Below, piece after piece: positions 9,263-32,000 of a stretch of DNA of 32,000 bases; position 1 is the first letter of the stretch, and every line of letters begins with the position of its first letter. The DNA is from an uncultured Pseudomonadota bacterium (GTDB taxonomy: Bacteria > Pseudomonadota > Gammaproteobacteria > Steroidobacterales > Woeseiaceae), in assembly GCA_913055625.1 (NCBI GenBank), contig CAJXJW010000007.1, positions 171,643 to 203,642 on the forward strand, written 5' to 3'. The notes under the pieces are model-generated. The model was not told the origin of the DNA. It ran no database searches and saw nothing but the letters and a program-made list of their open reading frames with translations. A program made the position numbers and the translations under genes.

Positions 9263-10877
9263 CGCCTTCAGCGAACGCAAGCTGACTGCCCGATATCCCA
9301 CCGACCTGCGCGCCTGGGCCGCACTCCGCGACCATTTTCGCGACGACATCCGCGGCCGCACGCTCGGCGACCTGTTCGCGCGCGACCGGGGGCGCGTGGA
9401 GCGCTTCACGGCGTCTGCCGGTGCGCTGTCGCTCGATTACTCGAAGAATCATCTCACGGCGAAGACGCGCAAGCTGCTCGTGCGCCTGGCGAAGGAAGCC
9501 GGCGTTCCGGCGGCGATCGAGGCGATGTTTGCCGGCGAACCGATCAACGTGACGGAGCAGCGCTCCGTGTTGCACGTGGCACTGCGTTCGAAGATCGCCG
9601 ACACGATCGCACTGGATGTTCCCGGTGTCCGGGATGTCTGGAAGGTGTTGAGTGCGATGGAGGTGTTCGTGGACGGCGTGCAGTCGGGGCAGGTCGCCGG
9701 CTCGACCGGCAAGCGCCTGACGGACATCGTCAACATCGGCATCGGCGGGTCGGATCTCGGGCCCGTGATGGTCAGCCGCGCACTGCGACCCTACTGGCAG
9801 GACGGGATGCGTTTTCACAGCGTGTCGAACGTCGACGGCACGCAGCTCGCGGACCTCACGTCGGAGCTGGACCCGGAGACGACGTTGTTCGTCATCTGTT
9901 CCAAGACGTTCACGACGCTCGAAACGATGACGAACGCGCGCATGGCGCGCGAGTGGGTGGTCGGCCGCCTCGGCGCCGACGCCGTCACGGACCATTTCGT
10001 GGCCGCGTCGACGAATCACGCTGCAATGAATGCATTCGGCATTCACCCGGAGTACCGCTTCGGTTTCTGGGACTGGGTGGGCGGGCGCTATTCCGTCTGG
10101 TCAGCCGTCGGATTGTCCGTCGCCCTGGTCACCGGCATGGGCGTGTTCCGCCGCCTGCTGGCGGGCGGACGCGTCATGGACCAGCACGTTCGCCAGGCGC
10201 CGTTCGAGGAAAACCTGCCGGTCCTGCAGGCCTTGCTCGCGGTCTGGTACAACAATTTTCACGGTGCCGAGAGCCAGGCGATCCTGCCCTACGACAACCG
10301 ACTGGATCGCTTCCCGGCTTACCTGCAGCAGCTGCAGATGGAGTCGAACGGGAAATCGGTGCGCATGGACGGGCGGCCCGTCCGTTGCCGCACGGGCATG
10401 GTGATCTGGGGCGAGGCGGGAAACAACGCGCAGCACTCGTTCTACCAGCTCCTGCACCAGGGGACGCGACTGATCCCCGTGGACTTCCTGTTGCCGGTGC
10501 GCTCGTCCGGCGCAACGCAGGCGCAACAGGACCTCGCCATCGCGAATTGCCTGGCGCAGGCAGAGGCGCTGATGGACGGCTACCTGGCGGACGGATTGGA
10601 GCCGTACCGCGCGCACGCCGGCAACAACCCGTCGAGCATGCTGCTGTTCGAGGAGCTGACGCCGGAAACCCTCGGCCAGCTGATTGCACTCTACGAGCAC
10701 AAGGTGTTCGTCGAGGGCGTCATCTGGGGCATCGACTCGTTCGACCAGTGGGGCGTCGAACTCGGCAAGCGGCTGGCGAGTGCGCTCGCCGGCGCCGTCG
10801 ACGGCAATTCCCCCTACGACGGCGGCAATGCATCGACAAGCGCGCTGCTCGAGCGAGCACGCGCCTACCGGCCGTGA
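9255..10877 (+). CDS. pgi: Glucose-6-phosphate isomerase
   Basis: '[14 protein letters not shown]', '[16 protein letters not shown]', '[12 protein letters not shown]', '[24 protein letters not shown]', '[16 protein letters not shown]'. GTG start at 9255 overlaps the epimerase gene by 8 nt. Confidence 0.92.
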
Positions 10878-10890
10878 CGGACGAGGTCCG

Positions 10891-12366
10891 GTGAACGAGC
10901 TGCGCGGGCTGTGTGCCAGCCTGTTATTCCTGTTTGCAGCGCCGCCGGCACCTGCGGGGCCCCAGGTCGAGTCCGGCGACATGGCGTTGCGTCACGACAT
11001 CCAGCGACTCGCGGATGCCGGCGTCATTCGCGGCACTGTCTCGACCTGGCCGATGGCCTGGGCACCCATACTCGAGGACCTGGATGCGGCGAGCCTGGCC
11101 GGTTTGCCCCAGGACGTCGTCGATGCCCTGTACCGTGTACGCTCCCGCGGCCAGTTCGAGACGGGGCAGGGCGATGTGCAGGTTACGGCCGAAGCCGGAC
11201 TGGCGAATGACCCCGCGAGCATCCGGTCTTACCAGGATACGCCGCGCGGCACGGCAGACGTACGTGCGAGCGCGGCATGGCACAGTGACGCGGTCAACAT
11301 CGACATTGCCGTGTCGTACGTCGACGCCGAGGGAGACGACGACGTCCGGATCGACGGCAGCCATCTCGGCGTCGCCCTCGGCAACTGGGAGTTCGCCGCC
11401 AGTACCCGGCAACGTTGGTGGGGACCGAGCTGGGACGGCAGCCTGATACTGTCCAACAATGCGCGGCCGTTCCCGTCCCTCGTGCTGGATCGGACCCGTA
11501 CCGACGCGTTCGAAACGAAGTGGCTGTCCTGGCTGGGTCCGTGGGACCTCGTGGTGATGTTCGGATTGCTCGAGGAAGAGCGCTACGTGCCGAACGCGCA
11601 GTTTTTCGGCATGCGTTTCAACTTCCGGCCCGTCGATTCTCTCGAGCTCGGCCTGTTTCGATCCGCCGAATGGTGCGGCGACGGCCGTCCCTGTGGGCTC
11701 GACACCTTCGTCGACCTGTTTCTCGGCCACGACAACCGGGGTGACGAGGGCATCGACGCGTCGAACGAACCCGGCAACCAGCTCGCCGGCGTCGACTTCC
11801 GCTGGACGCCGGGGTTTCTCGGCAGGCGCACCGCGTTTTACGGGCAGTTCGTCGGCGAGGATGAGGCAGGCGGTTTTCCGAGCCGCTGGCTCGGCCAGTT
11901 CGGCGCGGAATGGACGGGCTATCTGTTCGATCGCTGGTCGACGCGCCTGTACGGCGAGGTTTCGGCGACGAGCTGCCAGTTCTACGAGTCCAGCGAGATC
12001 TTCAATTGTGCCTACAACCACAGCATCTACCAGAGCGGATATCGCTATCGCGGGCGCTCGATCGGGCACGGTGCCGACAACGACACGCGGCTGCTGAGCG
12101 CCGGCGTCGTGGCCGTCGCGGCGGACGAGACGCAGTGGCGCGCGTTGCTGCGCTACGGAAAACTCAACCGCGGCGGCGCACCGGACGAATGGAACAGCCT
12201 GACGCCGACGCCGCAGGAAATCGTATCGCTCGACGTCGCGCATGGCCGGCGTCTGCCGTTCGGAATCATCGACGTCGGGATCGGCTACGCGCTCGTCGAC
12301 GACATTGCGAGCGCGACCGACACCTCCGATGCCCGCTTCTACGTGCAATGGCGAAGCGAGTACTAG
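10891..12366 (+). CDS. wzi: Capsule assembly Wzi-family outer-membrane protein, paralog 1
   Basis: Signal-like 'VNELRGLCASLLFLFAAPPAPA' followed by 'LRHDIQRLADAGVIRGTVSTWPMAW', which matches the Wzi N-terminal helical motif. The rest is long and beta-rich and ends in an aromatic residue ('WRSEY'). Start set at GTG 10891, because the ORF-track start at 10684 lies inside pgi. Confidence 0.75.
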   Translation: MNELRGLCASLLFLFAAPPAPAGPQVESGDMALRHDIQRLADAGVIRGTVSTWPMAWAPILEDLDAASLAGLPQDVVDALYRVRSRGQFETGQGDVQVTAEAGLANDPASIRSYQDTPRGTADVRASAAWHSDAVNIDIAVSYVDAEGDDDVRIDGSHLGVALGNWEFAASTRQRWWGPSWDGSLILSNNARPFPSLVLDRTRTDAFETKWLSWLGPWDLVVMFGLLEEERYVPNAQFFGMRFNFRPVDSLELGLFRSAEWCGDGRPCGLDTFVDLFLGHDNRGDEGIDASNEPGNQLAGVDFRWTPGFLGRRTAFYGQFVGEDEAGGFPSRWLGQFGAEWTGYLFDRWSTRLYGEVSATSCQFYESSEIFNCAYNHSIYQSGYRYRGRSIGHGADNDTRLLSAGVVAVAADETQWRALLRYGKLNRGGAPDEWNSLTPTPQEIVSLDVAHGRRLPFGIIDVGIGYALVDDIASATDTSDARFYVQWRSEY

Positions 12367-13856
12367 TGCAGCGCCACACCGCCGCGCTTGCCGCGCTGCT
12401 GGCCGCTGCGTCGTTGCTTACGACGGCAGTCCGGGCGGAGGAGTTCATCGCGCCCGGCGATACGGGCATGCGTATCGACCTGGAGTCGCTGAACGATGCC
12501 GGGGTGCTCAATATTCCACTGACGGCGTGGCCGATGTCGTCGGCCGACATCGCGTCGGCGCTCGACGTGATCGACGAGGCGGCGCTGGACGCCCGCAGCC
12601 GCGACGCGGCACGGCGGATCCGCGCGAGGCTCGAGCCGTCCGGGACACCGGCAGGCGCGCGGGCATACGGCAGCCTGGCCGGGGCGTACTCGCCGTTGAT
12701 CCTGCGCGGCTTCGAGGACACGCCGCGCGCCGAAGGGGAGGCCCGCGCGGGCATCGCGTGGGGTGGCGAGCGCGTGTTCCTGCGTCTCCAGGGGACGCTG
12801 GCCGCAAACCCGGCCGACGGCGACGACGTGCGGCCCGACGGCACCTACGTCGGCATTCACGTCGGCAACTGGGTGGCGTCGGCCGGCTGGCAGGATCGCT
12901 GGTACGGGCCGGGCAGGGATTCGAGCCTCGTGTTGTCGACGAACGCGCGGCCGCCGCCGGGCATCATGCTGCAGCGACGGCACAGCACGCCGTTCGAATC
13001 CCGCTGGCTGAGCTGGATCGGGCCGTGGACGCTGACGACGTTCATGGCCGGCCTGCACGACGAGCGCGAGATTGACGACGCCTGGCAGTTCGGCATCCGC
13101 GGCAGTTTCCGACCGCTGCCCGGCCTCGAGATCGGCCTGTCGCGCGCGGCGATCTGGTGTGGCGACGGTCGCCCCTGCGACGTGTCGACGTTCGTCGACC
13201 TGCTGCTCGGCAATGACAATCGCGGGGCGAATGTCGCCGCGGAGGATGAGCCGGGCAACCAGCTCGGCGGCTTCGACCTGCGCTGGCGGCTGCCGGCGGA
13301 TATCCCGGCGGCCGTGTACCTGCAGTGGATCGGCGAGGACGGCCGCCCCGGGGCCGGGCTCGTGGGGTCGTGGCTGCGGCAGTTCGGCGTGGAAGCCTGG
13401 GGCGAGGCCGGCACGTTGTCGCACCGGTCCTACGTCGAAGTGTCCGACACGACCTGCCGCGAGGGTGGCCTCGGATTTTCCGATGTGAAGCCCGACTGCG
13501 GCTACGAGCACGGCCTGTACCGCACCGGCTACCGCTACGAGGGCCGGTCGCTGGGTCACAGCGGCGACTCGGACCTGAAGAGCATCGTCGTCGGCTCGAC
13601 GCTCCTGTGGCCGGACGGCGACCAGCTCGGCCTCGTCCTGCGCTACCGGGACATCAATCGCTACGGCACCGACACCGGCAGGCACACGCTGTCGCAATCG
13701 CCGCAGGAGGTCGCCGACATCCTGCTGACGCTGGACCGGCAGACGCGGATCGGCCGGTTGCGCGCCGGCATCGGCTATCGGCACGTCGACGGCGCGGCCG
13801 GCGGCGCCCTGTCGCCCAGCGAGGCCCAGGCCTACGTGGTTTGGAACTGGCCCTGA
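12348..13856 (+). CDS. wzi: Capsule assembly Wzi-family outer-membrane protein, paralog 2
   Basis: 'MAKRVLVQRHTAALAALLAAASLLTTAVRA' signal, then 'MRIDLESLNDAGVLNIPLTAWPMSSADI'. The core aligns with paralog 1, for example 'WLSWIGPWTLTTF' against 'WLSWLGPWDLVVMF' and 'WCGDGRPCDVSTFVDLLLGNDNRG' against 'WCGDGRPCGLDTFVDLFLGHDNRG'. ATG 12348 overlaps paralog 1 by 19 nt. Confidence 0.75.
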   Translation: MAKRVLVQRHTAALAALLAAASLLTTAVRAEEFIAPGDTGMRIDLESLNDAGVLNIPLTAWPMSSADIASALDVIDEAALDARSRDAARRIRARLEPSGTPAGARAYGSLAGAYSPLILRGFEDTPRAEGEARAGIAWGGERVFLRLQGTLAANPADGDDVRPDGTYVGIHVGNWVASAGWQDRWYGPGRDSSLVLSTNARPPPGIMLQRRHSTPFESRWLSWIGPWTLTTFMAGLHDEREIDDAWQFGIRGSFRPLPGLEIGLSRAAIWCGDGRPCDVSTFVDLLLGNDNRGANVAAEDEPGNQLGGFDLRWRLPADIPAAVYLQWIGEDGRPGAGLVGSWLRQFGVEAWGEAGTLSHRSYVEVSDTTCREGGLGFSDVKPDCGYEHGLYRTGYRYEGRSLGHSGDSDLKSIVVGSTLLWPDGDQLGLVLRYRDINRYGTDTGRHTLSQSPQEVADILLTLDRQTRIGRLRAGIGYRHVDGAAGGALSPSEAQAYVVWNWP

Positions 13857-19804: not shown

Positions 19805-20851
19805 CTATCGAAATCGACGCTTCGACCAATTCTCCAGCCACCGTTCGGCCGGTAGGAAGCCGTACTCGGCTGCGACACGCTCGGCATCCGGGCGCAGTTC
19901 CTCCGCGTACCGGGCCCGTTCCTCGGCCGTCAGCGAGAACCGGATTCTGCGGCGGTTCTGGGGGCGAACCGTCCACGCCATCTCGTCGATGCCGAGAAAC
20001 GCGCAGACCTGCTTCATGACCGACCGCGGTTTCCGGCACAACTGGTCGAAATCCACGAGAAGAATGTTCTCGCGCGGGATCCTGGACGCAAAGAGATCGA
20101 GGTGGGCTGCGTAGCGGGAAAGGCGAAGGCAATGCCGAACGCTCCCGGTATCGCCGGTCTTGCCCAGCGTATGAGCCAGATGCGACTCTATCCGGTCCAC
20201 CGGGTCGCGAAGGAGGTAGGCGATCCGCGTTTCGGCTCCGAGGTTTGCAATTCGGGCAGGAACGTTCTTCGTCGCCGGAAGCTTCGCGTAGTTCGGCGAT
20301 ACGTCCAGCGTCCAGGCATGTTTCGCCGGGTCGAAGTCAAAGCGCCAGTCATAGTTCAACGCTGAGTGTGAGTTCCGGTAGAGCCTGGAAAAATAGTTGA
20401 TCTCTTTCGTGAAGCTCTTTCCGGGGACTTCGACGTTCGTGCCGCACAGGGCAGGGTGCTTCGAGAGCATGCGATGCAAGGTTGTCGTTCCGGCCTTCAT
20501 GGCACCGATCACGATGAAGTGGCGGCCGACCGGCTCGATGCCGGGACCGCTGGCCACCGAGAACGCCCGTGCGCCGAGCTCGCCATCGCGTCCCTCCACG
20601 GCGCATTCGATGTGCGTCGCTGCCGGAGGCGTCTTGATGCTAACGTGATCCGTGCGCGGGCCCAGGGCCCGTCGCTCCTCCGCGAGCAGGCGTCGGCGCC
20701 TGAAGTAGCGGACGTACACACTTGAGCCGCGAACGCCGGCGGGGTCGAAGCGAATCTCTACGTGAGCGGCAGCCCTGACGCGGAAACGATTGCTGTCGTT
20801 CAGGGATTCGGTCGCGCTTCGCTGCGGCGACGTACTAGATGTCGAGCTCAT
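19805..20851 (-). CDS. Sulfotransferase (PAPS-dependent family)
   Basis: 5'-phosphosulfate-binding loop 'IVIGAMKAGTTTLHRML' and 3'-phosphate-binding motif 'YLLRDPVDRIESHLAH'. ATG 20851 gives a ~110-aa N-terminal extension and a 17-nt overlap with the upstream ADH gene. In-frame GTG 20557 is a shorter alternative. Confidence 0.8.
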   Translation of the reverse strand: MSSTSSTSPQRSATESLNDSNRFRVRAAAHVEIRFDPAGVRGSSVYVRYFRRRRLLAEERRALGPRTDHVSIKTPPAATHIECAVEGRDGELGARAFSVASGPGIEPVGRHFIVIGAMKAGTTTLHRMLSKHPALCGTNVEVPGKSFTKEINYFSRLYRNSHSALNYDWRFDFDPAKHAWTLDVSPNYAKLPATKNVPARIANLGAETRIAYLLRDPVDRIESHLAHTLGKTGDTGSVRHCLRLSRYAAHLDLFASRIPRENILLVDFDQLCRKPRSVMKQVCAFLGIDEMAWTVRPQNRRRIRFSLTAEERARYAEELRPDAERVAAEYGFLPAERWLENWSKRRFR

Positions 20852-21980
20852 CGAGCGCCTCGGTCACGATGGACCTGACGTCGGCTTCCGTCGCATCGCG
20901 CAGATTGTTCTCTGCACGGCCGGGCGCGAACATCTGATTCGACAACGCGAGGACAGATTCCTTGTCCGGCACAAACCGGGAAACGTGCTTGCTGACGTCG
21001 ATTTTCTCGAACAATGCTGACAGGCCCTCGGCCAGTTCCGAGGGCCGGCGAAACCCGACGCTGCGCGCCAGGTCCTGCAGCCTGCCGTCGTCCGCCGCGG
21101 CATTGAACCTGAGCAGTGCCGGCAGCGTGAAGCTGCAGGCCAGCCCGTGCGGCAGTTCGAAATTCGAGGTCACCGGGTAGGAGATCGCGTGCGCGAGTGC
21201 CGTTCGGCTCTGGCTGATGGCGAGGCCGGCCAGCGTGCTGGCCTGGATCATGGCAGCCCGCGCCTCGATGTTGTCGGGTTGTTCGACGACCCGGGGAAGG
21301 TTGCGGATCGATTGCTGCAGCGACCGGGTGGCGAGTCCGATCGACACCGGCGTGGCATTGCGGTTCCAGCTCGATTCCAATGCATGCGACACCGCATCGA
21401 GGCCCGACGCAACCGTCACGGACTCCGGAAGTCCCAGTGTCAGCTCGGGGTCCAGGATGGCGTGCTGCGGGAAGAGATCATTGGCGGCAAGGGAATGTTT
21501 CTTCTTGCCCGCCCGGTCCCAGACCGTACCGAACGGCGTGACCTCTGCCCCGGTTCCGGCTGTCGTTGGCACAGCGATGACCGGCAGTGCAGGCGATACG
21601 TCGATTCGGCTCGTTCCGGCGAGCAGCGCATCGAGCGCGGTTCCCGCCGGGAGACCGAGCAGCTTTGCAAGCGCCTTGGCCGTGTCGATGACGCTGCCGC
21701 CGCCCACGGCCAGCAGGATGGCCGGGTCCTCGCGGCGTACGCGCTCCGCCTGGGCCTGTATGTCGCGAACGTCGGGGTTCGGTGCGACGTCATCGAGTAC
21801 GGCGACGATTCTTTTCCCGAATGTCTGTTCGAGGTTGTCGACGAGTCCGCGGCGGCGAAAGCCGGCGGAGGTAACCACCAGTACACGCGATTCCTCGACC
21901 AGCCCGGACAGTCGCCTGGCGGCGCCGATATCGAACAGGATCCGGACGGGGTTGTTGTAGGTCCAGGTCTCGTTGCGCAT
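20835..21980 (-). CDS. Iron-containing (group III) alcohol dehydrogenase; by context a phosphonoacetaldehyde reductase (PhpC/FomC-like)
   Basis: 'AVGGGSVIDTAKALAKL' and the metal-binding His-rich region 'LAHAISYPVTSNFELPHGLACS'. It lies directly downstream of ppd in the same operon. Confidence 0.7.
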   Translation of the reverse strand: MRNETWTYNNPVRILFDIGAARRLSGLVEESRVLVVTSAGFRRRGLVDNLEQTFGKRIVAVLDDVAPNPDVRDIQAQAERVRREDPAILLAVGGGSVIDTAKALAKLLGLPAGTALDALLAGTSRIDVSPALPVIAVPTTAGTGAEVTPFGTVWDRAGKKKHSLAANDLFPQHAILDPELTLGLPESVTVASGLDAVSHALESSWNRNATPVSIGLATRSLQQSIRNLPRVVEQPDNIEARAAMIQASTLAGLAISQSRTALAHAISYPVTSNFELPHGLACSFTLPALLRFNAAADDGRLQDLARSVGFRRPSELAEGLSALFEKIDVSKHVSRFVPDKESVLALSNQMFAPGRAENNLRDATEADVRSIVTEALDELDI

Positions 21981-22013: not shown

Positions 22014-23138
22014 TCAGAGCCCGAGGCTCTGCATCAGCGCGTCGCGGTTCTCGATGGGCGTCGACTTCGGTCGGCCGAGCTCAGGCCGTGCTCCCTTGTT
22101 GACGACGACTTGCAGCAGGGCCGGTCCGCGTAGCCCGAGCAGCCGTTGCAGCTCGCGCGCAAGTTCCTCTTCGTCCGTGACCGACACGGCCTCGCGATAC
22201 CCGCAGGCCCGCGCGATGGCCGGCACATCGATTTCGTAGCCTACGGTGGGCTGCCCGCCGACCGAATCATGGGCCCCATTATTGATCACGATGTGCAGCA
22301 GGTTGTCGCTGCCTTGCCGGGAGATGATGCCCATGGCGCCCATGTGCATGATCAGCGAACCGTCACCGTCCAGGCAGACGACGCGGCGCGCCGGTTGTGC
22401 GCGTGCCAGTCCCATCGCGATGGACGCCGTGTGTCCCATGCCGCCGACGGTCAGGAAATCATTGCCGGCGGTACCTTTCGCCTGCCGATACTCGTAGACC
22501 TCCCGTGACGCTTTCCCGGTCGTCGAGACGACGACATCCTCATCCCCGAGCCGTTCGAGTACGCACTGGATTGCCGCCTCACGGTTCATCGGGTAGTTCG
22601 TCGCTGACTTCTTGCGCAACTCGTAACGTGCGAACGTGTTCTTGCGCACCAGGAGGGCCACGGGCGCCGCCGCCTCCTTCATCGTGCGGCATGCCTCCGC
22701 CAACACGGTGGTCGCGTCTTCCGCCTCGGCCGGCAAGACGAACCACGGCACCTCCATCGCATCCAGCAGCTCCGTCATTCGGCGTCCTTGCTTGACGTGC
22801 TGGGGCTCGTCCTTCACGCCGGGCTCGCCGCGCCACCCGATCACCATGAGCATCGGGACGCTGTAGACCTCGCGATCCGCGAGGGACAGCAAGGGATTCA
22901 CGGCATTGCCGATACCGGAGTTCTGCATGTACACCACTGCCGGTTTCGCGCTACCCAGGTAGTGCCCCATCGCCAGTGCGACCGCATTGCCTTCGTTTGC
23001 GGCAATCACGTGATCGTCGTCGGGTGCGTTGTCACTGACGTAGGCGCAGAAGTCCTTGAGCAGGGAGTCCGGGACGCCGGTAAAAAAGTCGAAGCCGTTC
23101 TGGCGCAGAAGGTCGTAGATGAGCGCGCTTTCCAGCAT
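22014..23138 (-). CDS. ppd: Phosphonopyruvate decarboxylase (ThDP-dependent)
   Basis: '[34 protein letters not shown]', 'NEGNAVALAMGHYLG', and the ThDP motif 'GDGSLIMHMGAMGIISRQGSDNLLHIVINNGAHDSVGGQ'. The ATG at 23136-23138 overlaps the pepM TGA at 23138-23140. Only the last 374 aa of ORF 22014..24104 are real. Confidence 0.9.
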   Translation of the reverse strand: MLESALIYDLLRQNGFDFFTGVPDSLLKDFCAYVSDNAPDDDHVIAANEGNAVALAMGHYLGSAKPAVVYMQNSGIGNAVNPLLSLADREVYSVPMLMVIGWRGEPGVKDEPQHVKQGRRMTELLDAMEVPWFVLPAEAEDATTVLAEACRTMKEAAAPVALLVRKNTFARYELRKKSATNYPMNREAAIQCVLERLGDEDVVVSTTGKASREVYEYRQAKGTAGNDFLTVGGMGHTASIAMGLARAQPARRVVCLDGDGSLIMHMGAMGIISRQGSDNLLHIVINNGAHDSVGGQPTVGYEIDVPAIARACGYREAVSVTDEEELARELQRLLGLRGPALLQVVVNKGARPELGRPKSTPIENRDALMQSLGL

Positions 23139-24439
23139 CAGCGCGTTCCCGGTATCAGGTCGAGAATTTCCTTGATCGACAGGAGCTGGCTGTCCGCCTC
23201 CGCGGACCGGCCGTTCGTCAGGATCGACTTTGCCGTGCTGACCATTGCCGGGTAGGCGGCACGCAACAACTGGTTCGCGTAGATGACGACGTTGACACCG
23301 TGGTCGATCAACTCGGCTTCCGTGACCTGGTTGTAGGTCGAGGGTACGACGACAAGAGGCACGCGGCGGTCGAACGCCTGGTAGCGATCGCAAAATTCGA
23401 AGATCTCGTCCGGCGTCTTGCTCTTGCTGTGGATCAGGATGCCGTCGGCTCCGGCCTCGATGTATGCCTGTGCCCGGGCTATCGCGTCGTCGAGGCCCTG
23501 TTCGAGGATCAGGCTTTCGATGCGCGCGATGATCATGAAGTCGTCGGTGATCTGCGCGGCCTTGCCGGCCCGGATCTTGCCGCAGAAGTTCTCGATCGAG
23601 TCCTGCTGCTGCGGCACCTCGTTGCCGAAGAGCGAATTCTTTTTCAATCCGACCTTGTCTTCGATGACAGCGGCAGAGACTCCGAGACGCTCGAGTGTCC
23701 TGACCGTGAACTGGAAATGCTCCAGCTTGCCGCCGGTATCCGCGTCGTAGACGATCGGTTTGGTCGTGACTTCCAGGATGTCGTGCAGGGTCTGTGTGCG
23801 CGACGTGACGTCGACGGCCTCGATGTCGGGTTTTCCCTTCGCCGTGGATTCGGTCAGGCTGCTGCCCCACATGCCGTCGAACTCGCGCGGGCCGTTCTTG
23901 CCGTTTGCGGAAATGCTTTCGACGATCAGACCCGTCAGGCCGTTGTGTGCCTCCATTAGCCGAACGAGCGGCTTGACGCGAAGCAGCCGCCGCAACTTGT
24001 TGCGACGCATGTCCGGTGTCGTGCCGATGTCCTTCATGGCTTCGTGCAACTGCGTCGACGAGATGCCCTTCGTGTACGGAATCTCGATAAGCTCGCCGCC
24101 CCATTCAGCGAGCGCGTCGACCACTGCGGCCCGCACGTCGCGCTGGACGCCTTCGCGCCAGTCGTCGCCGTGGACGACGAAATCCGGCTTCAATGCCCGC
24201 AGGTTCGGAACGTAGTCCAGCGTCTCCTGGGGAACGACCCGCTCGACACCTTTCAACTGCTCGACCACTTCCCGGCGTTGCTCGAAGGTCATGTAGGGCA
24301 GGCGCTTGTAGCTCGCGATCGCTTCATCCGTGAGCAGACCGATGGTGACCTGGCCCAGCTTCTGAGCTTCCCTGATGATGTTCAAATGACCGGGATGAAC
24401 CAGGTCTGCGCTCATCGCGACGTACACAAGCTTCGTCAT
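23138..24439 (-). CDS. pepM: Bifunctional protein: N-terminal HIGH-type cytidylyltransferase-like domain fused to phosphoenolpyruvate phosphomutase
   Basis: aa 1-~135: '[21 protein letters not shown]' (HxGH nucleotidyltransferase motif, TagD/ECT-like). aa ~145-433: PEP mutase with the diagnostic '[10 protein letters not shown]' (23633-23662) and 'DADTGG'. The Shine-Dalgarno-like GAGGAAG lies just upstream of ATG 24439. Confidence 0.9.
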
Positions 24440-24877: not shown

Positions 24878-26533
24878 ATGACGTCGCCTGTTGTGAGCTG
24901 CGTGCGCCGCCGACCCGTTCCTGGAGACTGTGTGTTCCGCTCACTGCTCAGCCGATTCGATACGTTGCCGGTCGCAGGCCGCCTTCTGCGGCGCTTCGCG
25001 GCGACAGCCGAAGACGAGGCTGGTCGTCGGGTCGGAGATGCGGACGGGCTGCCGATACGACCTGCCGATCGGCGTGCCGTGTTGCAATCCTTGCTTGCGG
25101 CCAGGTTCCACGACGCCGGAATCGAGTGCCATTGTGCCGATGGAGAATCCGCTGCCTATTGCGCCATCCTCGACAAGGATGTCGATGGTGCTGCCCGGGT
25201 TCTGCAGCGACTGGCCACTGATCTCGGCGTCAACCAGGTCGTCGTCTGGCAGGGCCGGGGGTACGGGTACGGCGCGGAGCAGCTCGCCGAGTCGCTGCAA
25301 CCGGCTGACGTTGCCGGGTCGGACTCACTCGTCGTCGCCGTACCGATCGTCCGGGAACGATTGCGGATCGGACGATCCGGTGGCGTGGAGGTGCTGATCG
25401 TCGGGCGACAGGGGCCGCGCTACGTTGCGCGACGCGACTGGGCGGGCAAGGTCGACTGGACGCAGGAGTTTGCCGGCAGCACCAGTGTGCCGGCGGCTGA
25501 TGGCGAGGCCGCTGCGCGCCCGTCATGCTCGAGGAGGCCCCGGCAGCACGTTCTCGACCGCGAGCCCGTCGATGCCGTCTATACGTGGGTCGATTCCGGC
25601 GATGCGGATTGGCTCGCGGAGATGCAACGCTGGGCATCGCGGGAACGCGGGGGTCTCGAATCTTCCCGCGAGCCAGAGCGATTCGCCGATCGGGATGAAC
25701 TGCGCTATTCGCTGCGTTCGCTATGGCTCTATGCTCCCTTCGTGCGGAACGTCTTCATCGTCACGTCCGGGCAGGTCCCTCGCTGGCTCGATGGCTCGCA
25801 CGACCGGGTTCGTGTCGTGCCGCATCGAGACATTTTCCCTGACCGTCGCGATTTGCCGACGTTCAACTCCCACGCGATCGAGGCGTGCCTGCACCGGATC
25901 GAGGGACTCGCAGAGCATTTCATCTATTTCAACGACGACGTTTTCCTGTTGCGCGAAACCACGCCGGGGACGTTCTTCACCCGGAACGGCCTCGCGAAGA
26001 GCCGGTTCTCAACGCGGGCTGCGATCCCGGCCGTCGAGCCCGGGCCCGAGTCCATCCCGACGGATTGGGCGTCATACAATGCCGCGACGTTCATCGAGAG
26101 AGACTTCGGACTGCGTTTTGACAGGAAGCTCAAACACGTTCCCATGCCCATGAAGAAAAGTGTATTGGCCGACCTGGAAACGCGATATGCCGACGAGTTC
26201 GAGGCGACTCGCCGGGCTAGGTTCCGTTCCAGCAGCGATATCGCCGTGCCGAGCATGCTGGCACATCTGTACGGCATCTGTGCCGGTCAGGCCGTGGAGT
26301 GGCAGCACGTGCCCGGCGAGTACGTTTATGCGGACAGCGGCAGGTCCGATATACGATCGAAACTGGAGCAGATGCTCGAAGGTCCGGCCACGTTCGCCTG
26401 CATCAATTCGACCCGATTCTCCGACGTCTCCACCGAGGAGCAGCGCGACCTGCTCGCCCGCTTTTTCGAGCAGCGGTTCCCGTTCCGTTCTCCGTTCGAG
26501 ATCGAAGGCCGGCGCCCGGGTGCGCAATCGTGA
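24878..26533 (+). CDS. Stealth-family hexose-1-phosphate transferase (capsule phosphotransferase/polymerase-like), copy 1
   Basis: Stealth conserved regions: CR1 'VDAVYTWVDSGDADW' (from 25568), CR2 'DRDELRYSLRSLWLYAPFVRNVFIVTSGQVPRWL' and 'LPTFNSHAIEACLHRIEGLAEHFIYFNDDVFLL'. CR3/CR4-like regions: 'KHVPMPMKKS', 'SSDIAVPSMLAHLYG'. The ~230-aa N-terminal region is unassigned and the start codon is uncertain. Confidence 0.85.
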   Translation: MTSPVVSCVRRRPVPGDCVFRSLLSRFDTLPVAGRLLRRFAATAEDEAGRRVGDADGLPIRPADRRAVLQSLLAARFHDAGIECHCADGESAAYCAILDKDVDGAARVLQRLATDLGVNQVVVWQGRGYGYGAEQLAESLQPADVAGSDSLVVAVPIVRERLRIGRSGGVEVLIVGRQGPRYVARRDWAGKVDWTQEFAGSTSVPAADGEAAARPSCSRRPRQHVLDREPVDAVYTWVDSGDADWLAEMQRWASRERGGLESSREPERFADRDELRYSLRSLWLYAPFVRNVFIVTSGQVPRWLDGSHDRVRVVPHRDIFPDRRDLPTFNSHAIEACLHRIEGLAEHFIYFNDDVFLLRETTPGTFFTRNGLAKSRFSTRAAIPAVEPGPESIPTDWASYNAATFIERDFGLRFDRKLKHVPMPMKKSVLADLETRYADEFEATRRARFRSSSDIAVPSMLAHLYGICAGQAVEWQHVPGEYVYADSGRSDIRSKLEQMLEGPATFACINSTRFSDVSTEEQRDLLARFFEQRFPFRSPFEIEGRRPGAQS

Positions 26534-28227
26534 CGGCAACGTCGAAAACCGAAGGCGGATCGCCGGTGCCGAAATCAGTGCCGAACAACAACCTGTCGGG
26601 GGTGCCGTTGTTCAAGGTCAAGCTCGAACTGGCACGTATGGTGCTGTCGATGAACCGGCTTGCGCAGGATTGCGCACTCGAGCCGAAAGTTCAGGCGAGT
26701 ATTCCCAGGCCGATGGACGTCGTGCGACTGCCACTGGAAGAGCTGGGCCGGAAATCGGAGAAGTTCGCCCGCGCGATGGCCCGGTCGCGCCCGGATTTTG
26801 AGAGTCATTTCCGGGACAACCAGAACCAGGCGATTGTCATGGCGTGGCAGATGGCGAACATCGCGGCCGGTTGCGAAAGAACGCGCTACGAGTATGCGTG
26901 CGCGTGCCTGCGTGCGCACCGTCAGGGCACCGGGTACGCGATCCTCAAGGCGCTCGCAGAGGCCGAGGACAGCAAGTCGAAGTTCGTCACCGCCGCCAGG
27001 AAACGGATCGCAAGGCTGGCCTGGAAGTCGGGGGATACCGAGGTTGCGCTGCGCGCCATGAGGTCGCAGCGTGGGCGGGCGGCGCGCGCCCAGTACCGCT
27101 CGTGGCTAGGCATCTCGACCGTGCGCGACGGCCTGTTGATGGCCGAGGCGGGCGATATCGACAGTGCCCGACTGGTCTTGGCCGGGGGCTTGCGTGCGAA
27201 CGGCATGGACGACGAGGTGGCCGATGCCGTCGCAGCGGTCTATCTCAAGGCATCGTCGCTGAACGGTGAGTTCGACGTGCCGGCCCTCGTCGCGGAGGGC
27301 CAGGCGGCCGAGGCAGACCCGCCTGGCGCGCCATTGCCCATCATCCTGTCCGGGTTCGGCTGGTCCGGCTCCGGCGCCGTCGCCGATTTCCTGACCGGAC
27401 ATTCGGACGTCGTCGACGTGTTCGCGGGTCGGGAGATGGGGCTGTGGACGGGAAAGTACGGTCTCGATCGCCTCTACGCTCACTTCCATGCGAGAGGCTA
27501 CAATCGGCGCTTGCTGCTCGAGTTCCTCACCCGCCACTGTTTCGGGCACCGCTTCCTGGGTGACAGCAAAGGCACCAAGAGCCTGGGTGGCATGTGGGCC
27601 TGGCTGGACGATGCGCAGAAGCGCCGACATCTCGCCCAACTCTGGGCATGGCTCGATGCCATCGCTCGCTGGCACGAAGATCCGGAATGCGCGCTGCTCG
27701 ACGCGTTCCAGGCGTTCTCGATGGGATTCCTGTCGTTGCTGGAGGGGCGCGAGGGCAGCAAGGTGTTCCTGTCGAACTGCATTCCATCGGACTCGATCGC
27801 CGGCATACGAATGTTTCGCGAGCCGGTCGTCATCGTCTCCTGGCGGGATCCGGGCGACGCGTACGCGTCCAAGTCCGCCGCTTTTCCCGATACCTCGCTG
27901 ACGTTCGAAGGCTGGCGATCGCAGTTGACGCGCCGCATCGACCGGTACCTGTCGGGCAAACGGGAAGTCGCCGACTGTGCCAGTGTCTGGCTGGACGTGT
28001 CGTTCGAAGAGTTCGTCCGGGACGCACGCTCGCGAGAGCGGTTGCTGGAGAGGCTCCAACTCGACAGTGCGGCGATGCAGTCGACCTTTGATCCCGCAGT
28101 CTCCGCGCGCAATATCGGCATTCATGAGCCGGGGGCGGGTGCTGCCCGCACAGGCTGGATTGAGCTTGCGCGTGCGGTCGCCGAATCGCGGCAAGTGGCG
28201 CAATCGATCGGGGCAGACCGGGACTGA
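26530..28227 (+). CDS. Two-domain protein: N-terminal alpha-helical region plus C-terminal sulfotransferase-fold domain
   Basis: The C-terminal half carries the loop 'PIILSGFGWSGSGAVADFL', 'VVIVSWRDPGDAYASKS' (RDPxD..S, a 3'-phosphate-binding-like motif) and 'VSFEEFVRDARSRERLLERLQLD'. The N-terminal ~270 aa are Ala/Arg-rich and look helical. The GTG 26530 start (GTGA overlap with the Stealth-1 stop) is inferred; a later ATG near 26638 is possible. Confidence 0.5.
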   Translation: MTATSKTEGGSPVPKSVPNNNLSGVPLFKVKLELARMVLSMNRLAQDCALEPKVQASIPRPMDVVRLPLEELGRKSEKFARAMARSRPDFESHFRDNQNQAIVMAWQMANIAAGCERTRYEYACACLRAHRQGTGYAILKALAEAEDSKSKFVTAARKRIARLAWKSGDTEVALRAMRSQRGRAARAQYRSWLGISTVRDGLLMAEAGDIDSARLVLAGGLRANGMDDEVADAVAAVYLKASSLNGEFDVPALVAEGQAAEADPPGAPLPIILSGFGWSGSGAVADFLTGHSDVVDVFAGREMGLWTGKYGLDRLYAHFHARGYNRRLLLEFLTRHCFGHRFLGDSKGTKSLGGMWAWLDDAQKRRHLAQLWAWLDAIARWHEDPECALLDAFQAFSMGFLSLLEGREGSKVFLSNCIPSDSIAGIRMFREPVVIVSWRDPGDAYASKSAAFPDTSLTFEGWRSQLTRRIDRYLSGKREVADCASVWLDVSFEEFVRDARSRERLLERLQLDSAAMQSTFDPAVSARNIGIHEPGAGAARTGWIELARAVAESRQVAQSIGADRD

Positions 28228-28308: not shown

Positions 28309-29940
28309 GTGCACGTGGCTCGTTTTTCTTCCGTCATAGTACCCCTGCGATCGCGGATTGCCGCGCTCATCGCGAAACATTCCCCGGATCGGTACAAGCG
28401 CATCATCGAGAACCGACATCCGGGGGTTCTCGTGGTCGGGGACCCGATGAGCGATGTCAGGAGCCTGAAGGAGCGGGCCGCCGAGCAACTCCTGCACTCG
28501 CTCGAGCAGGTGGGACTGCCGGTGCTGGCGAAAATCGACGACCGCAACTGCTGGATCGTGCTTGCCGGCACCGGTGACGACGAGGATGACGTCGAGCGGC
28601 TGGTCGGTGAACTGATCGATGCCGGCATGCGGATCTCCGTGGCGATGCGGGGACGCCGCACCAAGAGGATTTCGAGCCGGGAACGGCTTCAGAGGCTGAA
28701 GCAGAACAAACCGCTGGACATCCTGTCGATCCGGGCGGGCTTCGTCTGGATGCGAAATCGCGGCTACAAACAGGTCGGCTGGCACGCCGCGGTACGCGTA
28801 CATTTCTACGACTGGAATACCGAACACAAGTCGTTCGTCGCACGCAGGGCCGGGAACCTGCCGCCGATGATCGATGATCTCGGGCAAGAAAAGTCCCGGA
28901 TAACGGGTCTTTGCCGGCCCGAGACCCGGCTGGACAAAGTGCGGTTTCCGATCGACGTGGTGTACACCTGGGTCGACGGCAACGACCCCCGGTGGAACGA
29001 GAAGCGCAATCGGCGTGCCGCCGAGATGGGCCGCGACCTGCATCGGGTATCCAACAGCCAGACGCGCTATATCAACCGTGACGAACTGCGCTATTCGCTG
29101 CGTTCCCTTTATTACTACGCGCCGTGGATTCGCAAGATATACCTCGTGACGGATGACCAGGTTCCGGACTGGCTGAACGCCGACAATGACCTGTTGCAGG
29201 TGATCGACCATAAGGACCTGTTTCCCGAGCATGCATCGCTGCCGACGTTCAACAGTCACGCAATCGAATCCGTGTTGCACAGAATTCCGGGGCTTTCGGA
29301 ACAGTTCCTGTACATGAACGACGACGTATTCTTCTCGTCCGTCGTGCACCCGGAATCGTTCTTCGAGGTGAGCGGTATTGCGCGGACGTTCCTGAGCCGG
29401 TCGATGATTCCGTTCTGCAACGAGAACCGCTCCGAGATCGCGTCGGAGTGGGGCGCGATGAACGCGAACGACCTCATCGTCGAGAAGTTCGGTGCCATGA
29501 TGCCGTACAAGACCAAGCACACGCCGCTTGCGTTGCGCCGGTCCTTGTTGCAGGACTTGGAAGACCAGTTCCGGGTGCATTTCGAGCGCCTGCGCAGCAC
29601 GCCGTTTCGCACCGCCAACGACCTTGCGCCGACCTCCACCCTGCACGCGTACTTCGGGCTGGCCAAAGGCTACGTCGTTCGCAGCGACATCGCCTATCGC
29701 TATGTCAACCTGGCGAGGCCGGATCTCAAGCGGGCGCTCGACGCCATCGCCTACAGCCGGCATTCCATGGTCTACTGCCTGAACGACACTGAGATCGAGG
29801 ATCATGCGGAGTTCGACTGGGACGCGCAGGAGTTTCACATCAAGACGTTCCTCAACATGATGTACCCGTACCAGGCGCCATGGGAGCAGCCGGAACCCGA
29901 CGATTCACCGCTGGAAACCAGCAGGACGGACGCACGATGA
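28309..29940 (+). CDS. Stealth-family hexose-1-phosphate transferase, copy 2
   Basis: 'IDVVYTWVDGNDPRW', 'NRDELRYSLRSLYYYAPWIRKIYLVTDDQVPDWL', 'LPTFNSHAIESVLHRIPGLSEQFLYMNDDVFF', 'KHTPLALRRS', 'NDLAPTSTLHAYFG'. Starts are GTG 28309 or GTG 28315. The ~215-aa N-terminal region is unassigned. Confidence 0.85.
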   Translation: MHVARFSSVIVPLRSRIAALIAKHSPDRYKRIIENRHPGVLVVGDPMSDVRSLKERAAEQLLHSLEQVGLPVLAKIDDRNCWIVLAGTGDDEDDVERLVGELIDAGMRISVAMRGRRTKRISSRERLQRLKQNKPLDILSIRAGFVWMRNRGYKQVGWHAAVRVHFYDWNTEHKSFVARRAGNLPPMIDDLGQEKSRITGLCRPETRLDKVRFPIDVVYTWVDGNDPRWNEKRNRRAAEMGRDLHRVSNSQTRYINRDELRYSLRSLYYYAPWIRKIYLVTDDQVPDWLNADNDLLQVIDHKDLFPEHASLPTFNSHAIESVLHRIPGLSEQFLYMNDDVFFSSVVHPESFFEVSGIARTFLSRSMIPFCNENRSEIASEWGAMNANDLIVEKFGAMMPYKTKHTPLALRRSLLQDLEDQFRVHFERLRSTPFRTANDLAPTSTLHAYFGLAKGYVVRSDIAYRYVNLARPDLKRALDAIAYSRHSMVYCLNDTEIEDHAEFDWDAQEFHIKTFLNMMYPYQAPWEQPEPDDSPLETSRTDAR

Positions 29941-31208
29941 GCGACGAGACTGCGCAGGGCGTGCTGCCGCCCAGGGCACTGATCTACAGCTTCCGGTTCG
30001 ATTCCGCGAAGGCCTTGCTGGCCCGCGCGGAGTTATCGGTGCCGGAAAAGCTCCGTGCCCGCCTGCTGAAGGCTGTCGAGTACAACGAAGCCAGCACCTT
30101 GCCCGTCGTAGCACCGCGGGACGCCGCCGAACCCGTGCCGGTCGGGCGCTGGTGGGAGGTCTGGCCGTCCGACACGCACCTCAGGGTCAAGGGATACGTA
30201 TCGGCGGAGTGCCTGCGCGTGGGCCTGTTCGTCAATGATCGACTGGTCAAGCTCGTCAACACGGTGCCCCGCCACGGCGACGCTCAAGGCCGGCGGGTAT
30301 TTCGGTTCAACCTGAAGTCCGACATCATGAAAGCCCTGCCGAAAAAGACGGTCATCGGCATCGGGTCGGAAGTGGGCTACCTCCGGCGCAGGAGCGGGGG
30401 ACTGTCGTACCGGGATCCTCGTTTGAACGGCACGGGCACCCTGTTCAGGAAGCTCGCTTCCGGACATTTCCTCACGAAGAAAGGCCGGCTGCAGCGACGG
30501 CTCGACGAGAACGAGGAATGGAAGGAATCGATACTCGATGCGTACACCGTGTTTCGGAAGTATTTCGAAGAGCGCTTCGATTACAAACCCTACATCATTT
30601 GTGGCACATTGCTGGGCCATCACAGGGAGGGTGACTTCATTGCGCACGATGACGATATGGACGTCGCCTATTTCTCGCGACACTCCCGGCCGGAAGACGT
30701 CCGGCAGGAAATGGCCACGATCGTTCAGGCAATGCTCGCGGACGGCTACGACATCAAGCTCGCTCGCAAGCCCGGGTTTTTCAAGCCGACGATCGGAGGG
30801 CTCTCGTTCGACGTGTTCCCGATGTGGCACGACCTGGACTGTCTCTGGATGATGAACACTACGCGCCAGCGCAGTGGGCCGGAACGAATCCTGCCGGTGT
30901 CGACGGCAAGATTTCGCGGCGTCGACGTGTACGTGCCGAACCAGATCGAGGCGTACATCGCCTCCGAGTACGGCCCGAACTGGCGGGTGCCGGATCCCGG
31001 TTACCGTTCGATCGGGGAACCGGGAACATCCGAGTACCTCTTGCGGAGCTGCCTCAGCGTCGAAGAGGTTGCCGAAATTCTGGATCGGGTTGCTGCGCTG
31101 CGGGCGGAAGGCATTTCGACGGGAAAACTGTCGGTGGCGGAACGGGACCTTCAGGCCTGGGTGGCCGGCGCAAACGACACGGACGGGACACTGGCGGACC
31201 AGCAATGA
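29937..31208 (+). CDS. LicD-family phospho(no)-group transferase with an unassigned ~190-aa N-terminal domain
   Basis: LicD core 'YIICGTLLGHHREGDFIAHDDDMDVAYFS' (30591-30665), then 'FDVFPMW' and 'YIASEYGPNWRVP'. ATG 29937 overlaps the Stealth-2 TGA (ATGA). Confidence 0.8.
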   Translation: MSDETAQGVLPPRALIYSFRFDSAKALLARAELSVPEKLRARLLKAVEYNEASTLPVVAPRDAAEPVPVGRWWEVWPSDTHLRVKGYVSAECLRVGLFVNDRLVKLVNTVPRHGDAQGRRVFRFNLKSDIMKALPKKTVIGIGSEVGYLRRRSGGLSYRDPRLNGTGTLFRKLASGHFLTKKGRLQRRLDENEEWKESILDAYTVFRKYFEERFDYKPYIICGTLLGHHREGDFIAHDDDMDVAYFSRHSRPEDVRQEMATIVQAMLADGYDIKLARKPGFFKPTIGGLSFDVFPMWHDLDCLWMMNTTRQRSGPERILPVSTARFRGVDVYVPNQIEAYIASEYGPNWRVPDPGYRSIGEPGTSEYLLRSCLSVEEVAEILDRVAALRAEGISTGKLSVAERDLQAWVAGANDTDGTLADQQ

Positions 31209-32000
31209 GCTCTTCGAGACCGATCTACTTTCACGTTGGCGCGCACAAGACCGCGACGACCTACATGCAGTCGAGGCTGCGTTCCAATCGTCAGCGCCTG
31301 CGCAACCACGGCGTCCATTTCGTGGACCTGTGGGCCAAGGCGCCGGCTCTCAAACGCTACCGCAAGCGTCTGAAGCGGCTCCTCGAGGCGCCGGCAGTCA
31401 ATGACCGGAAGCTCGGCAAACTGGCGGCTGTCCTGCGGCGGCTGGTCGATGCGGACTCGTCCGATGACAAATCCCGGATCGTTCTGTCGTACGAGAACGC
31501 GCTCGGCGGGTTCGACCTCACGCGGAGCGCGGCGCCGTACCCGCACGCAGCCGCGGCCGTCGCACACATCCGGGAGGCGTTCCCCGACCAGGATGTCAAG
31601 ATCCTGTTCTCCATACGGTCGCTGGACCGCTTCCTCGAATCGGGTTACCTGCAGAATGTGCTGTCGCGACAGGAAACACGCACGTTTGCCCGTTACCTTG
31701 GCGGGGTCGATATCGACGGCCTGAGTTGGTTGCCGGCGATCCGCGACATGGAGTCGGTGGTGGGCGCCGAAAACCTGCTGATCTGGAACTACGAGAATTT
31801 CCCGGCCAACGAGTCGACGGTGTGGGACCTGCTCCTGGGACTGGCGGATGCCGATAGCCTCCTTGTACGTCCTGCCAAGAAGAGCAACCAGTCGTTGTCC
31901 GCGAAAGGCCTGAAGTTCATGCGCCGCATCAACTCCGTCGCGACCCCGTCCGAGGCGAAGAAGTTCCGGACGTTCATCAAGGAAAACTTCGGGCCGGAGT
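31205..32000 (+). CDS. Sulfotransferase-fold protein (P-loop 'HKTATT' type); 3' end outside the window
   Basis: Not in the ORF track because there is no stop codon before the window ends. My manual translation from ATG 31205 (ATGA overlap with the LicD-like stop) is open to base 32000: 'MSSSRPIYFHVGAHKTATTYMQSRLRSN...ILFSIRSLDRFLESGY...'. 'GxHKTxTTxxQ' resembles the PAPS 5'-phosphosulfate-binding loop. Confidence 0.5.
   Translation, partial: MSSSRPIYFHVGAHKTATTYMQSRLRSNRQRLRNHGVHFVDLWAKAPALKRYRKRLKRLLEAPAVNDRKLGKLAAVLRRLVDADSSDDKSRIVLSYENALGGFDLTRSAAPYPHAAAAVAHIREAFPDQDVKILFSIRSLDRFLESGYLQNVLSRQETRTFARYLGGVDIDGLSWLPAIRDMESVVGAENLLIWNYENFPANESTVWDLLLGLADADSLLVRPAKKSNQSLSAKGLKFMRRINSVATPSEAKKFRTFIKENFGPE

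Follow-up and report, generated by a model that had tools for sequence, protein, structure and literature searches.

Known systems and the LicD-like gene

Enzymes of the LicD family decorate surface glycans. Here we describe a gene related to this family in a 32,000-nucleotide stretch of DNA from an uncultured bacterium of the Woeseiaceae (contig CAJXJW010000007.1, positions 171,643 to 203,642); this whole stretch is called the window below. The gene (29937..31208, + strand) encodes a 423-amino-acid protein, termed the LicD-like protein, and lies opposite an operon for phosphonate synthesis. The original prediction, made from the window alone, proposed that the gene is the logical transferase for installing the phosphonate. 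This proposal is supported by the catalytic residues of the protein, by linkage to phosphonate genes in 7 of 7 close homologues, by the operon of a more distant relative, and by the lack of a competing donor in the genome. We consider it the best available and a fairly probable reading, and refine the donor to CMP-2-hydroxyethylphosphonate (CMP-HEP).

Among the described systems, human FKRP (PDB 6KAJ-6KAN) offers the clearest structural comparison. This ribitol-5-phosphate transferase uses a CDP-activated donor and releases CMP. Its residues D360, D362, D364 and D416 hold two Mg2+ ions and are all essential for the transfer of ribitol phosphate from CDP-ribitol, and its non-catalytic N-terminal domain helps to recognise the phosphate on the acceptor (PMC6965139). 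With FKRP the LicD-like protein shares its nucleotidyltransferase fold, the set of four acidic residues and a motif of the hGG/S type. However, the two proteins are only 18% identical, and the LicD-like protein is bacterial, cytoplasmic and predicted to use a phosphonate donor. It also has no cysteine in residues 160-221, and therefore no counterpart of the four-cysteine zinc-finger loop of FKRP, and its N-terminal domain is an immunoglobulin (Ig)-like sandwich rather than a GT-A-like stem. Given the absence of both the loop and the stem, the LicD-like protein is not an FKRP orthologue.

Bacterial LicD enzymes (PF04991), such as the phosphocholine transferases of Streptococcus pneumoniae and Haemophilus influenzae, share with the LicD-like protein the motifs GTLLG...R...FI.HDDD.D and, toward the C terminus, YG..W..PD. 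The LicD-like protein differs from them in having ~190 extra N-terminal residues, in the lack of a choline pathway in its genome, and in its predicted CMP-HEP donor. Other LicD-like genes are found near clusters for aminoethylphosphonate (AEP) that contain pntC, and their products are presumed to pass a phosphonate activated by a cytidylyltransferase (CyTase) to a cell-wall glycan, although the steps from CMP-phosphonate to glycan have been called enigmatic (Rice et al. 2019, PMC6697681). Those clusters use aminoethylphosphonate and a LicC-like PntC, whereas the present locus combines a PF01467 domain of the Fom1 type with an alcohol dehydrogenase, a set predicted to lead to 2-hydroxyethylphosphonate (HEP). 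Neither the LicD-like enzymes of AEP clusters nor the product of the present gene has been characterised.

Roughly half of bacterial phosphonate clusters are thought to decorate cell surfaces, and HEP-bearing polysaccharide is a major form in which phosphonate occurs in dissolved organic matter of the sea (PMC8942020); that paper makes no mention of LicD. The idea that LicD enzymes install phosphonates is already in the literature, and what is new here is an architecture and a family that give a clean, testable system. The family is a soluble candidate with an intact active site for the uncharacterised step from phosphonate to glycan. Its predicted donor could be made with known enzymes, and natural variants exist with and without the N-terminal module and with and without Stealth genes.

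The catalytic domain

The original prediction had confined the LicD core to the C-terminal part of the protein, and this is what we observe. A nucleotidyltransferase fold occupies residues ~181-356 of the model; the catalytic domain, supported by the fold match to FKRP and by the family profile, is assigned to residues 193-360 (30513..31016). The Pfam LicD model matches above its gathering score (27 bits, with a cut-off of 22.6), but the match spans only residues 220-244, equivalent to profile positions 10-34 (25 of 227 positions). The LicD motif quoted in the original prediction sits at residues 223-243. In a six-frame search of the genome with PF04991, the gene did not reach an E value of 0.001. 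The best NCBIfam match is to cholinephosphotransferase, at 36 bits against a cut-off of 225.

Structural comparison is more informative. An AlphaFold2 model based on an alignment of 18 relatives has a pLDDT of 88.4 and a pTM of 0.81. Model residues 181-356 superimpose on the catalytic domain of human FKRP with a Z score of 13.6 and a root-mean-square deviation of 3.2 Å over 160 residues, and Foldseek detects the same relationship at an E value of 3.9e-6. The next families with a nucleotidyltransferase fold, MenT, LnuA and ANT(2''), follow at Z scores of 8-9.5. A sequence profile of the family also retrieves FKRP (E value 3.3e-7) and aligns D238, D240, D242 and D292 with FKRP D360, D362, D364 and D416, respectively. 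All four aspartates are invariant across the 18 aligned relatives. The first three belong to a D238-D239-D240-M-D242 motif (30648..30662) that is predicted to bind metal and donor, and D292 is encoded at 30810-30812. The hG[GS] motif takes the form C222-G223-T224, in which Thr replaces Gly/Ser. The protein is a LicD/FKRP-type phosphotransferase with an intact catalytic centre and a predicted activity.

The open reading frame (ORF) is not a chance one. A search of 5.8 billion proteins retrieved ~30 full-length homologues with 45-65% identity and E values down to 1e-174, and their N termini fit the start at 29937, which argues for a real gene. The highest Kyte-Doolittle mean over any 19 residues is 0.89; there is no hydrophobic segment and no transmembrane segment, so the protein is predicted to be soluble and cytoplasmic.

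The gene is embedded in a tightly packed operon on the + strand. Its start codon at 29937 lies within the TGA stop codon of a Stealth hexose-1-phosphate transferase gene (28309..29940, conserved regions CR1-CR4), forming an ATGA overlap, so the ATGA coupling that had originally been noted is real. A second ATGA joins its own stop codon (31206-31208) to the start of the next gene (31205). With overlaps on both sides, the LicD-like gene is the fourth gene of an operon that begins with another Stealth hexose-1-phosphate transferase gene (24878..26533, +) and continues with a gene for a protein with tetratricopeptide repeat (TPR)-like helices and a sulfotransferase-fold domain (26530..28227, +; the assignment is only a lead), the second Stealth gene, the LicD-like gene and a gene for a P-loop protein. 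The last of these (31205..32000, +) runs off the window to the equivalent of 32131. Its 308-amino-acid product has a P-loop ('HVGAHKTATTYMQ') that resembles the loop of sulfotransferases that binds 3'-phosphoadenosine 5'-phosphosulfate (PAPS), and it matched no family in domain searches.

The phosphonate operon and its predicted product

The LicD-like operon diverges from an operon on the - strand (24439-20835), as the original prediction had described. The first gene of the latter (23138..24439, -) encodes a fusion of a Fom1-type cytidylyltransferase with PEP mutase (PepM; TIGR02320, 411 bits). The PepM part carries the mutase-specific EDKxxxxxNS motif, and the fused domain belongs to PF01467. 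The next gene (22014..23141, -) encodes phosphonopyruvate decarboxylase (Ppd; TIGR03297, 484 bits), and its ATG overlaps the pepM stop codon in an ATGA at 23138-23141 (-), indicating that both divergent operons are translationally coupled throughout. It is followed by a gene for an iron-dependent alcohol dehydrogenase (Fe-ADH; 20835..21980, -), a predicted phosphonoacetaldehyde reductase for which TIGR03405, a model of a phosphonate-cluster enzyme, gives by far the best score, though one below its cut-off. A canonical sulfotransferase gene (19805..20851, -) ends the operon and is conserved in three related loci (L001, L002 and L101).

The donor-making half of this set corresponds to the Fom1-Fom2-FomC steps of fosfomycin synthesis. 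The CyTase domain matches a chain of PDB 5x3d with an E value of 6.9e-62 over 135 residues; the record names this chain 'phosphoenolpyruvate phosphomutase', and we take it to be the N-terminal CyTase domain of Fom1. The CyTase domain of Fom1 uses CTP to turn HEP into CMP-HEP (Rice et al. 2019, PMC6697681). The combination of a Fom1-type CyTase-PepM fusion, Ppd and Fe-ADH thus suggests that the donor is CMP-HEP and not an aminophosphonate, and the pepM fusion would be its source. A small-molecule pathway like that of fosfomycin was also considered and rejected. Unlike in fosfomycin clusters, no radical-SAM methyltransferase, epoxidase, CMP hydrolase or other late fosfomycin gene was found among the scanned ORFs, and the genes lie in a capsule locus of the Kps type.

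Phosphocholine or ribitol-phosphate donor pathways could have offered a better explanation of the gene. We looked for such pathways in the genome (3.63 Mb, 99.45% complete), and found no LicA/LicC, TagD or TarI/TarJ and no pathway to phosphocholine, CDP-glycerol, CDP-ribitol or CDP-ethanolamine; the proposal therefore survives this comparison. The other nucleotidyltransferases found in the genome, in a search that also covered generic NTP transferases, are all housekeeping enzymes (CoaD, NadD, HldE, RibF, MobA, MocA, GlmU, ManC, GalU, GlgC and KdsB). One choline-kinase-like match was rejected as a sign of a phosphocholine pathway, as it is a weak thiamine-kinase/APH-like protein.

In the same genome, IspD was found by neither PF01128 nor TIGR00453, which gave only weak GlmU-type matches. 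Another isoprenoid route or a very divergent enzyme may account for this.

Linkage to phosphonate genes in other genomes

Close homologues of the LicD-like gene were examined wherever their contigs were long enough to judge (L001, L002 and L100-L103, with 57-65% identity), together with a locus found from the PepM side (L105). In 6 of 6 cases in the first set, the homologue is within 10 kb of a CyTase-PepM/Ppd/Fe-ADH operon, and gene order and orientation vary among these six loci. The L105 homologue, likewise within 10 kb of the operon, comes after pepM-ppd-adh and is read in the same direction. No Stealth gene was detected on the 14-kb L105 contig, so what the homologues are linked to is the phosphonate operon and not Stealth; this contig also carries a PAPS synthase (ATP-sulfurylase/APS-kinase) gene. 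A relative with 33% identity and the same N-terminal sandwich (HHalign 96%) is the next gene after pepM-ppd-adh in locus L025, forming one operon with them.

Phylogeny gives a consistent picture. A maximum-likelihood tree built from 116 LicD cores places the LicD-like gene in an eight-row clade (SH-aLRT 94), every row of which is linked to PepM, and the PepM label is far more clustered in the tree than in shuffles. Three loci of the wider clade (L026, L033 and L036) that were first scored as unlinked do have a Fom1-type PepM, either immediately beyond the part of the contig first examined or on a different contig. Searches of 24 genomes from the same genus and 16 from the same order returned neither the LicD-like gene nor a Fom1-type PepM. 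This pattern across 40 related genomes fits acquisition of the cassette as a unit, and the cassette resembles a variable capsule module gained by horizontal transfer.

The N-terminal module

The first ~190 residues had originally been described as matching nothing. It is true that they belong to no Pfam or NCBIfam family, but the region is not an orphan; it is folded and is conserved in a LicD subfamily. Structure prediction, which had been proposed as a check, resolves it into three parts. Residues 10-52 (29964..30092) form three short helices that resemble a TPR hairpin, residues 66-165 (30132..30431) form an Ig/FN3-like beta-sandwich with pLDDT above 90, and residues 166-192 (30432..30512) form a linker that lacks cysteines and contains a K181-K182-G183 motif. 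The module is well folded in the model of the whole protein and also when predicted on its own (pLDDT 92.4).

Comparisons of the module with 48,161 PDB representatives and the ESM Atlas gave generic matches only, with no specific solved relative. The helices match TPR proteins (5wrv_B, Z score 6.0; 3rkv_A, Z score 5.6; ~51 residues), and distant relatives have full TPR arrays in place of the hairpin. For the sandwich, the best matches are Ig receptors (Z scores 7.3-8.0), the Ig-like domain of endoglucanase CelD (5.7-7.4) and CBM21 (6.5). The last is a generic beta-sandwich match, and no specific family of carbohydrate-binding modules could be assigned. Further matches are to bacterial proteins that contain a methyltransferase (TM scores up to 0.50), and these may be fusions like the methyltransferase-LicD proteins that the homologue search also returned. 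The KKG motif is invariant or nearly so in the family and is placed where FKRP has its zinc-finger loop; the superposition on FKRP begins at model residue 181, equivalent to FKRP residue 303.

A phmmer search with residues 1-200 against 1.8 billion representatives retrieved 24 proteins. The sandwich is directly N-terminal to a LicD core in all 10 of the 10 matches that were scanned, and is therefore part of a conserved two-domain unit of a LicD subfamily rather than a one-off addition. Long TPR arrays often stand N-terminal to the sandwich in the scanned relatives, and in one of them a sulfatase domain does.

Residues 60-195 are strongly basic in 18 of 18 relatives (net charge +7 to +17, pI 9.9-11.5), in contrast to the catalytic core, which is neutral or acidic. 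A basic, sugar-binding-like sandwich beside the active site would suit the binding of a membrane or of an acceptor that is a polyanion, for instance a polymer that is sulfated or contains sugar phosphates. Since short LicDs that lack the module occur at other Fom1-type loci, use of a phosphonate donor does not require it, and this fits a role on the acceptor side. The conserved charge, the Ig-like fold, the precedent of the FKRP stem and the short LicDs together suggest that the module helps to choose the acceptor. If so, it would be a new example of the division seen in FKRP between a catalytic domain and a domain that holds the acceptor.

Proposed mechanism

We propose that a cytoplasmic LicD/FKRP-type enzyme moves HEP from CMP-HEP onto a capsule acceptor, and regard this mechanism as a whole as reasonably likely. 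PEP mutase and phosphonopyruvate decarboxylase would produce phosphonoacetaldehyde, the Fe-ADH would reduce it to HEP, and the Fom1-type CyTase domain of the PepM fusion would join HEP to CMP. By analogy with FKRP, D238, D240 and D242 together with D292 may hold two Mg2+ ions that bind the donor. A sugar hydroxyl activated by Mg2+ could then attack the phosphonyl phosphorus, with CMP as the leaving group, to yield a phosphonate ester of the form sugar-O-P(O)(O-)-CH2CH2OH. The acceptor would be a capsule polymer or its lipid-linked precursor; the two Stealth sugar-1-phosphate transferases encoded in the same operon would build it, and its modification would precede export by a Kps-type ABC system. 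The basic sandwich and the KKG linker may hold the polyanionic acceptor, or the membrane, near the active site.

A second LicD paralogue

Just past the end of the window is a gene for a TPR-LicD paralogue of ~535-618 amino acids (L104:1737-3593, -; window-equivalent ~32094-33950, contig ~203736-205592). The protein has TPR repeats, the same beta-sandwich, a KxG linker and a LicD core. It shares 27% identity with the LicD-like protein and is conserved in four related cassettes (L001, L002, L101 and L103). Its metal motif reads HDVGGFD, compared with HDDDMD in the LicD-like protein. The third Asp is retained, while every orthologue but one (L101, HDVDGFD) has lost the residue that corresponds to FKRP D362. 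This pattern suggests that the paralogue may be a non-catalytic (pseudoenzyme) partner, or may catalyse a changed reaction. Prediction of a complex between residues 1-411 of the LicD-like protein and residues 84-618 of the paralogue scored 0.00 and is uninformative either way. The full catalytic set makes the LicD-like gene the better candidate for the transfer step.

Alternative explanations

Several observations weigh against assigning phosphonate transfer to the LicD-like gene. The literature that we searched contains no LicD-type phosphonate transferase that has been demonstrated biochemically or genetically. The match of the Fe-ADH to TIGR03405 (366 bits, E value 1e-109) is below the curated cut-off of 423.7. 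The cassette also contains the TPR-LicD paralogue and several sulfotransferase-fold proteins that could share or take over the role. Co-occurrence with pepM, another check that had been proposed, is strong for the 7 close homologues and weaker in the reverse direction: among 37 metagenome loci of 10 kb or more with a Fom1-type PepM, a LicD is detectable in only 6 (5 of 17 with Fe-ADH and 1 of 20 without), and several of these LicDs are of the short kind without the N-terminal module. LicD is therefore either one of several partners of Fom1-type operons, or was missed by the detector in some loci. Finally, the nearest outgroups, from Hansschlegelia, Massilia and Shinella, are 35-39% identical, no PepM was found in their genomes, and a stand-alone PF01467 cytidylyltransferase adjoins the LicD gene in 2 of the 3, which indicates that the subfamily also uses donors other than phosphonates. 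The subfamily taken together thus works with products of the PF01467 cytidylyltransferases, with phosphonate use belonging to particular clades.

The outgroups also favour the idea that the present enzyme draws on a CDP donor and moves another phospho-alcohol head group (glycerol phosphate, phosphoethanolamine or phosphocholine, for instance), and that pepM is nearby merely because both belong to a capsule locus. About 33 of 80 distant relatives adjoin a stand-alone PF01467 gene without PepM, and cholinephosphotransferase is the best, albeit far subthreshold, NCBIfam match. However, the genome lacks LicA/LicC, TagD, TarI/TarJ and any other free cytidylyltransferase, and linkage to pepM persists through changes in gene order and the loss of Stealth, which makes this explanation very improbable. 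We give equally little credence to the proposal that HEP is installed by the TPR-LicD paralogue or by a sulfotransferase-fold protein, with the LicD-like gene having a different or structural role. Both PAPS and CMP-HEP belong to the nucleotide mixed anhydrides, the cassette has three to five sulfotransferase-fold genes, and the paralogue is conserved in the genome of the window as well as in the four related cassettes. Yet the paralogue has lost the D362 equivalent while the LicD-like gene keeps all its catalytic residues, and L105 and L100/L102 have a LicD of the active type with no paralogue detected in the stretch examined. Transfer of a phosphonyl group by an enzyme with a sulfotransferase fold is not known to us, although no literature search was made on this point.

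Another explanation retains CMP-HEP as donor and changes the position of HEP in the product. HEP would be placed within the chain or serve as a primer, and its 2-hydroxyl would be extended by Stealth with a sugar 1-phosphate, giving a teichoic-acid-like chain of alternating phosphodiesters and phosphonate esters. The translational coupling of the LicD-like gene to a Stealth polymerase gene is in line with this scheme, as is the constant presence of two Stealth and two LicD-like genes in the cassette. FKTN/FKRP-type enzymes set ribitol phosphate in a chain that is then extended (PMC6965139), a free hydroxyl would remain on HEP, and loci L025 and L026 have three beta-sandwich LicD paralogues. 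On the other hand, the L105 homologue has no Stealth gene nearby, and known HEP glycans are described as exopolysaccharide conjugates (PMC8942020). Pendant and in-chain HEP are inseparable by computation. We consider in-chain or priming HEP unlikely overall. A more elaborate version, to which we assign a low probability, has the LicD-like enzyme, the degenerate TPR-LicD and the two Stealth proteins build a capsule with an in-chain HEP linker (sugar-1-P-O-CH2CH2-P-O-sugar) and thus a C-P backbone, sulfated by the sulfotransferases of the cassette. Such a capsule would be a surface polymer chemistry that has not yet been described.

Other features of the capsule cassette

Up to four sulfotransferase-fold genes of the capsule cassette are located in the window at 19805-20851, 26530-28227 and 31205-32000, and beyond it at L104:3499-5427 (-). 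Sulfation, either of the polymer or of the hydroxyl of HEP, seems to belong to the chemistry of the cassette. Two large proteins that combine TPRs with a sulfotransferase-like fold were considered as rival transferases and set aside on account of that fold, which is itself a lead only.

The HEP cluster of L025 includes a gene (L025:2784-4922, +) for a 712-amino-acid protein in which an Fe-alcohol dehydrogenase is fused to a family-2 glycosyltransferase. Each of the three beta-sandwich LicD paralogues in this cluster has an orthologue in L026, a Treponemataceae locus.

Two tandem genes of the Wzi family occur in a locus with Kps/ABC-type export genes (Poly_export, ABC2_membrane and ABC_tran), at window positions 10684-13856 and L104:5502-9836. 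Wzi is usually tied to Wzy-dependent group 1 capsules, which makes its pairing with Kps/ABC export unusual.

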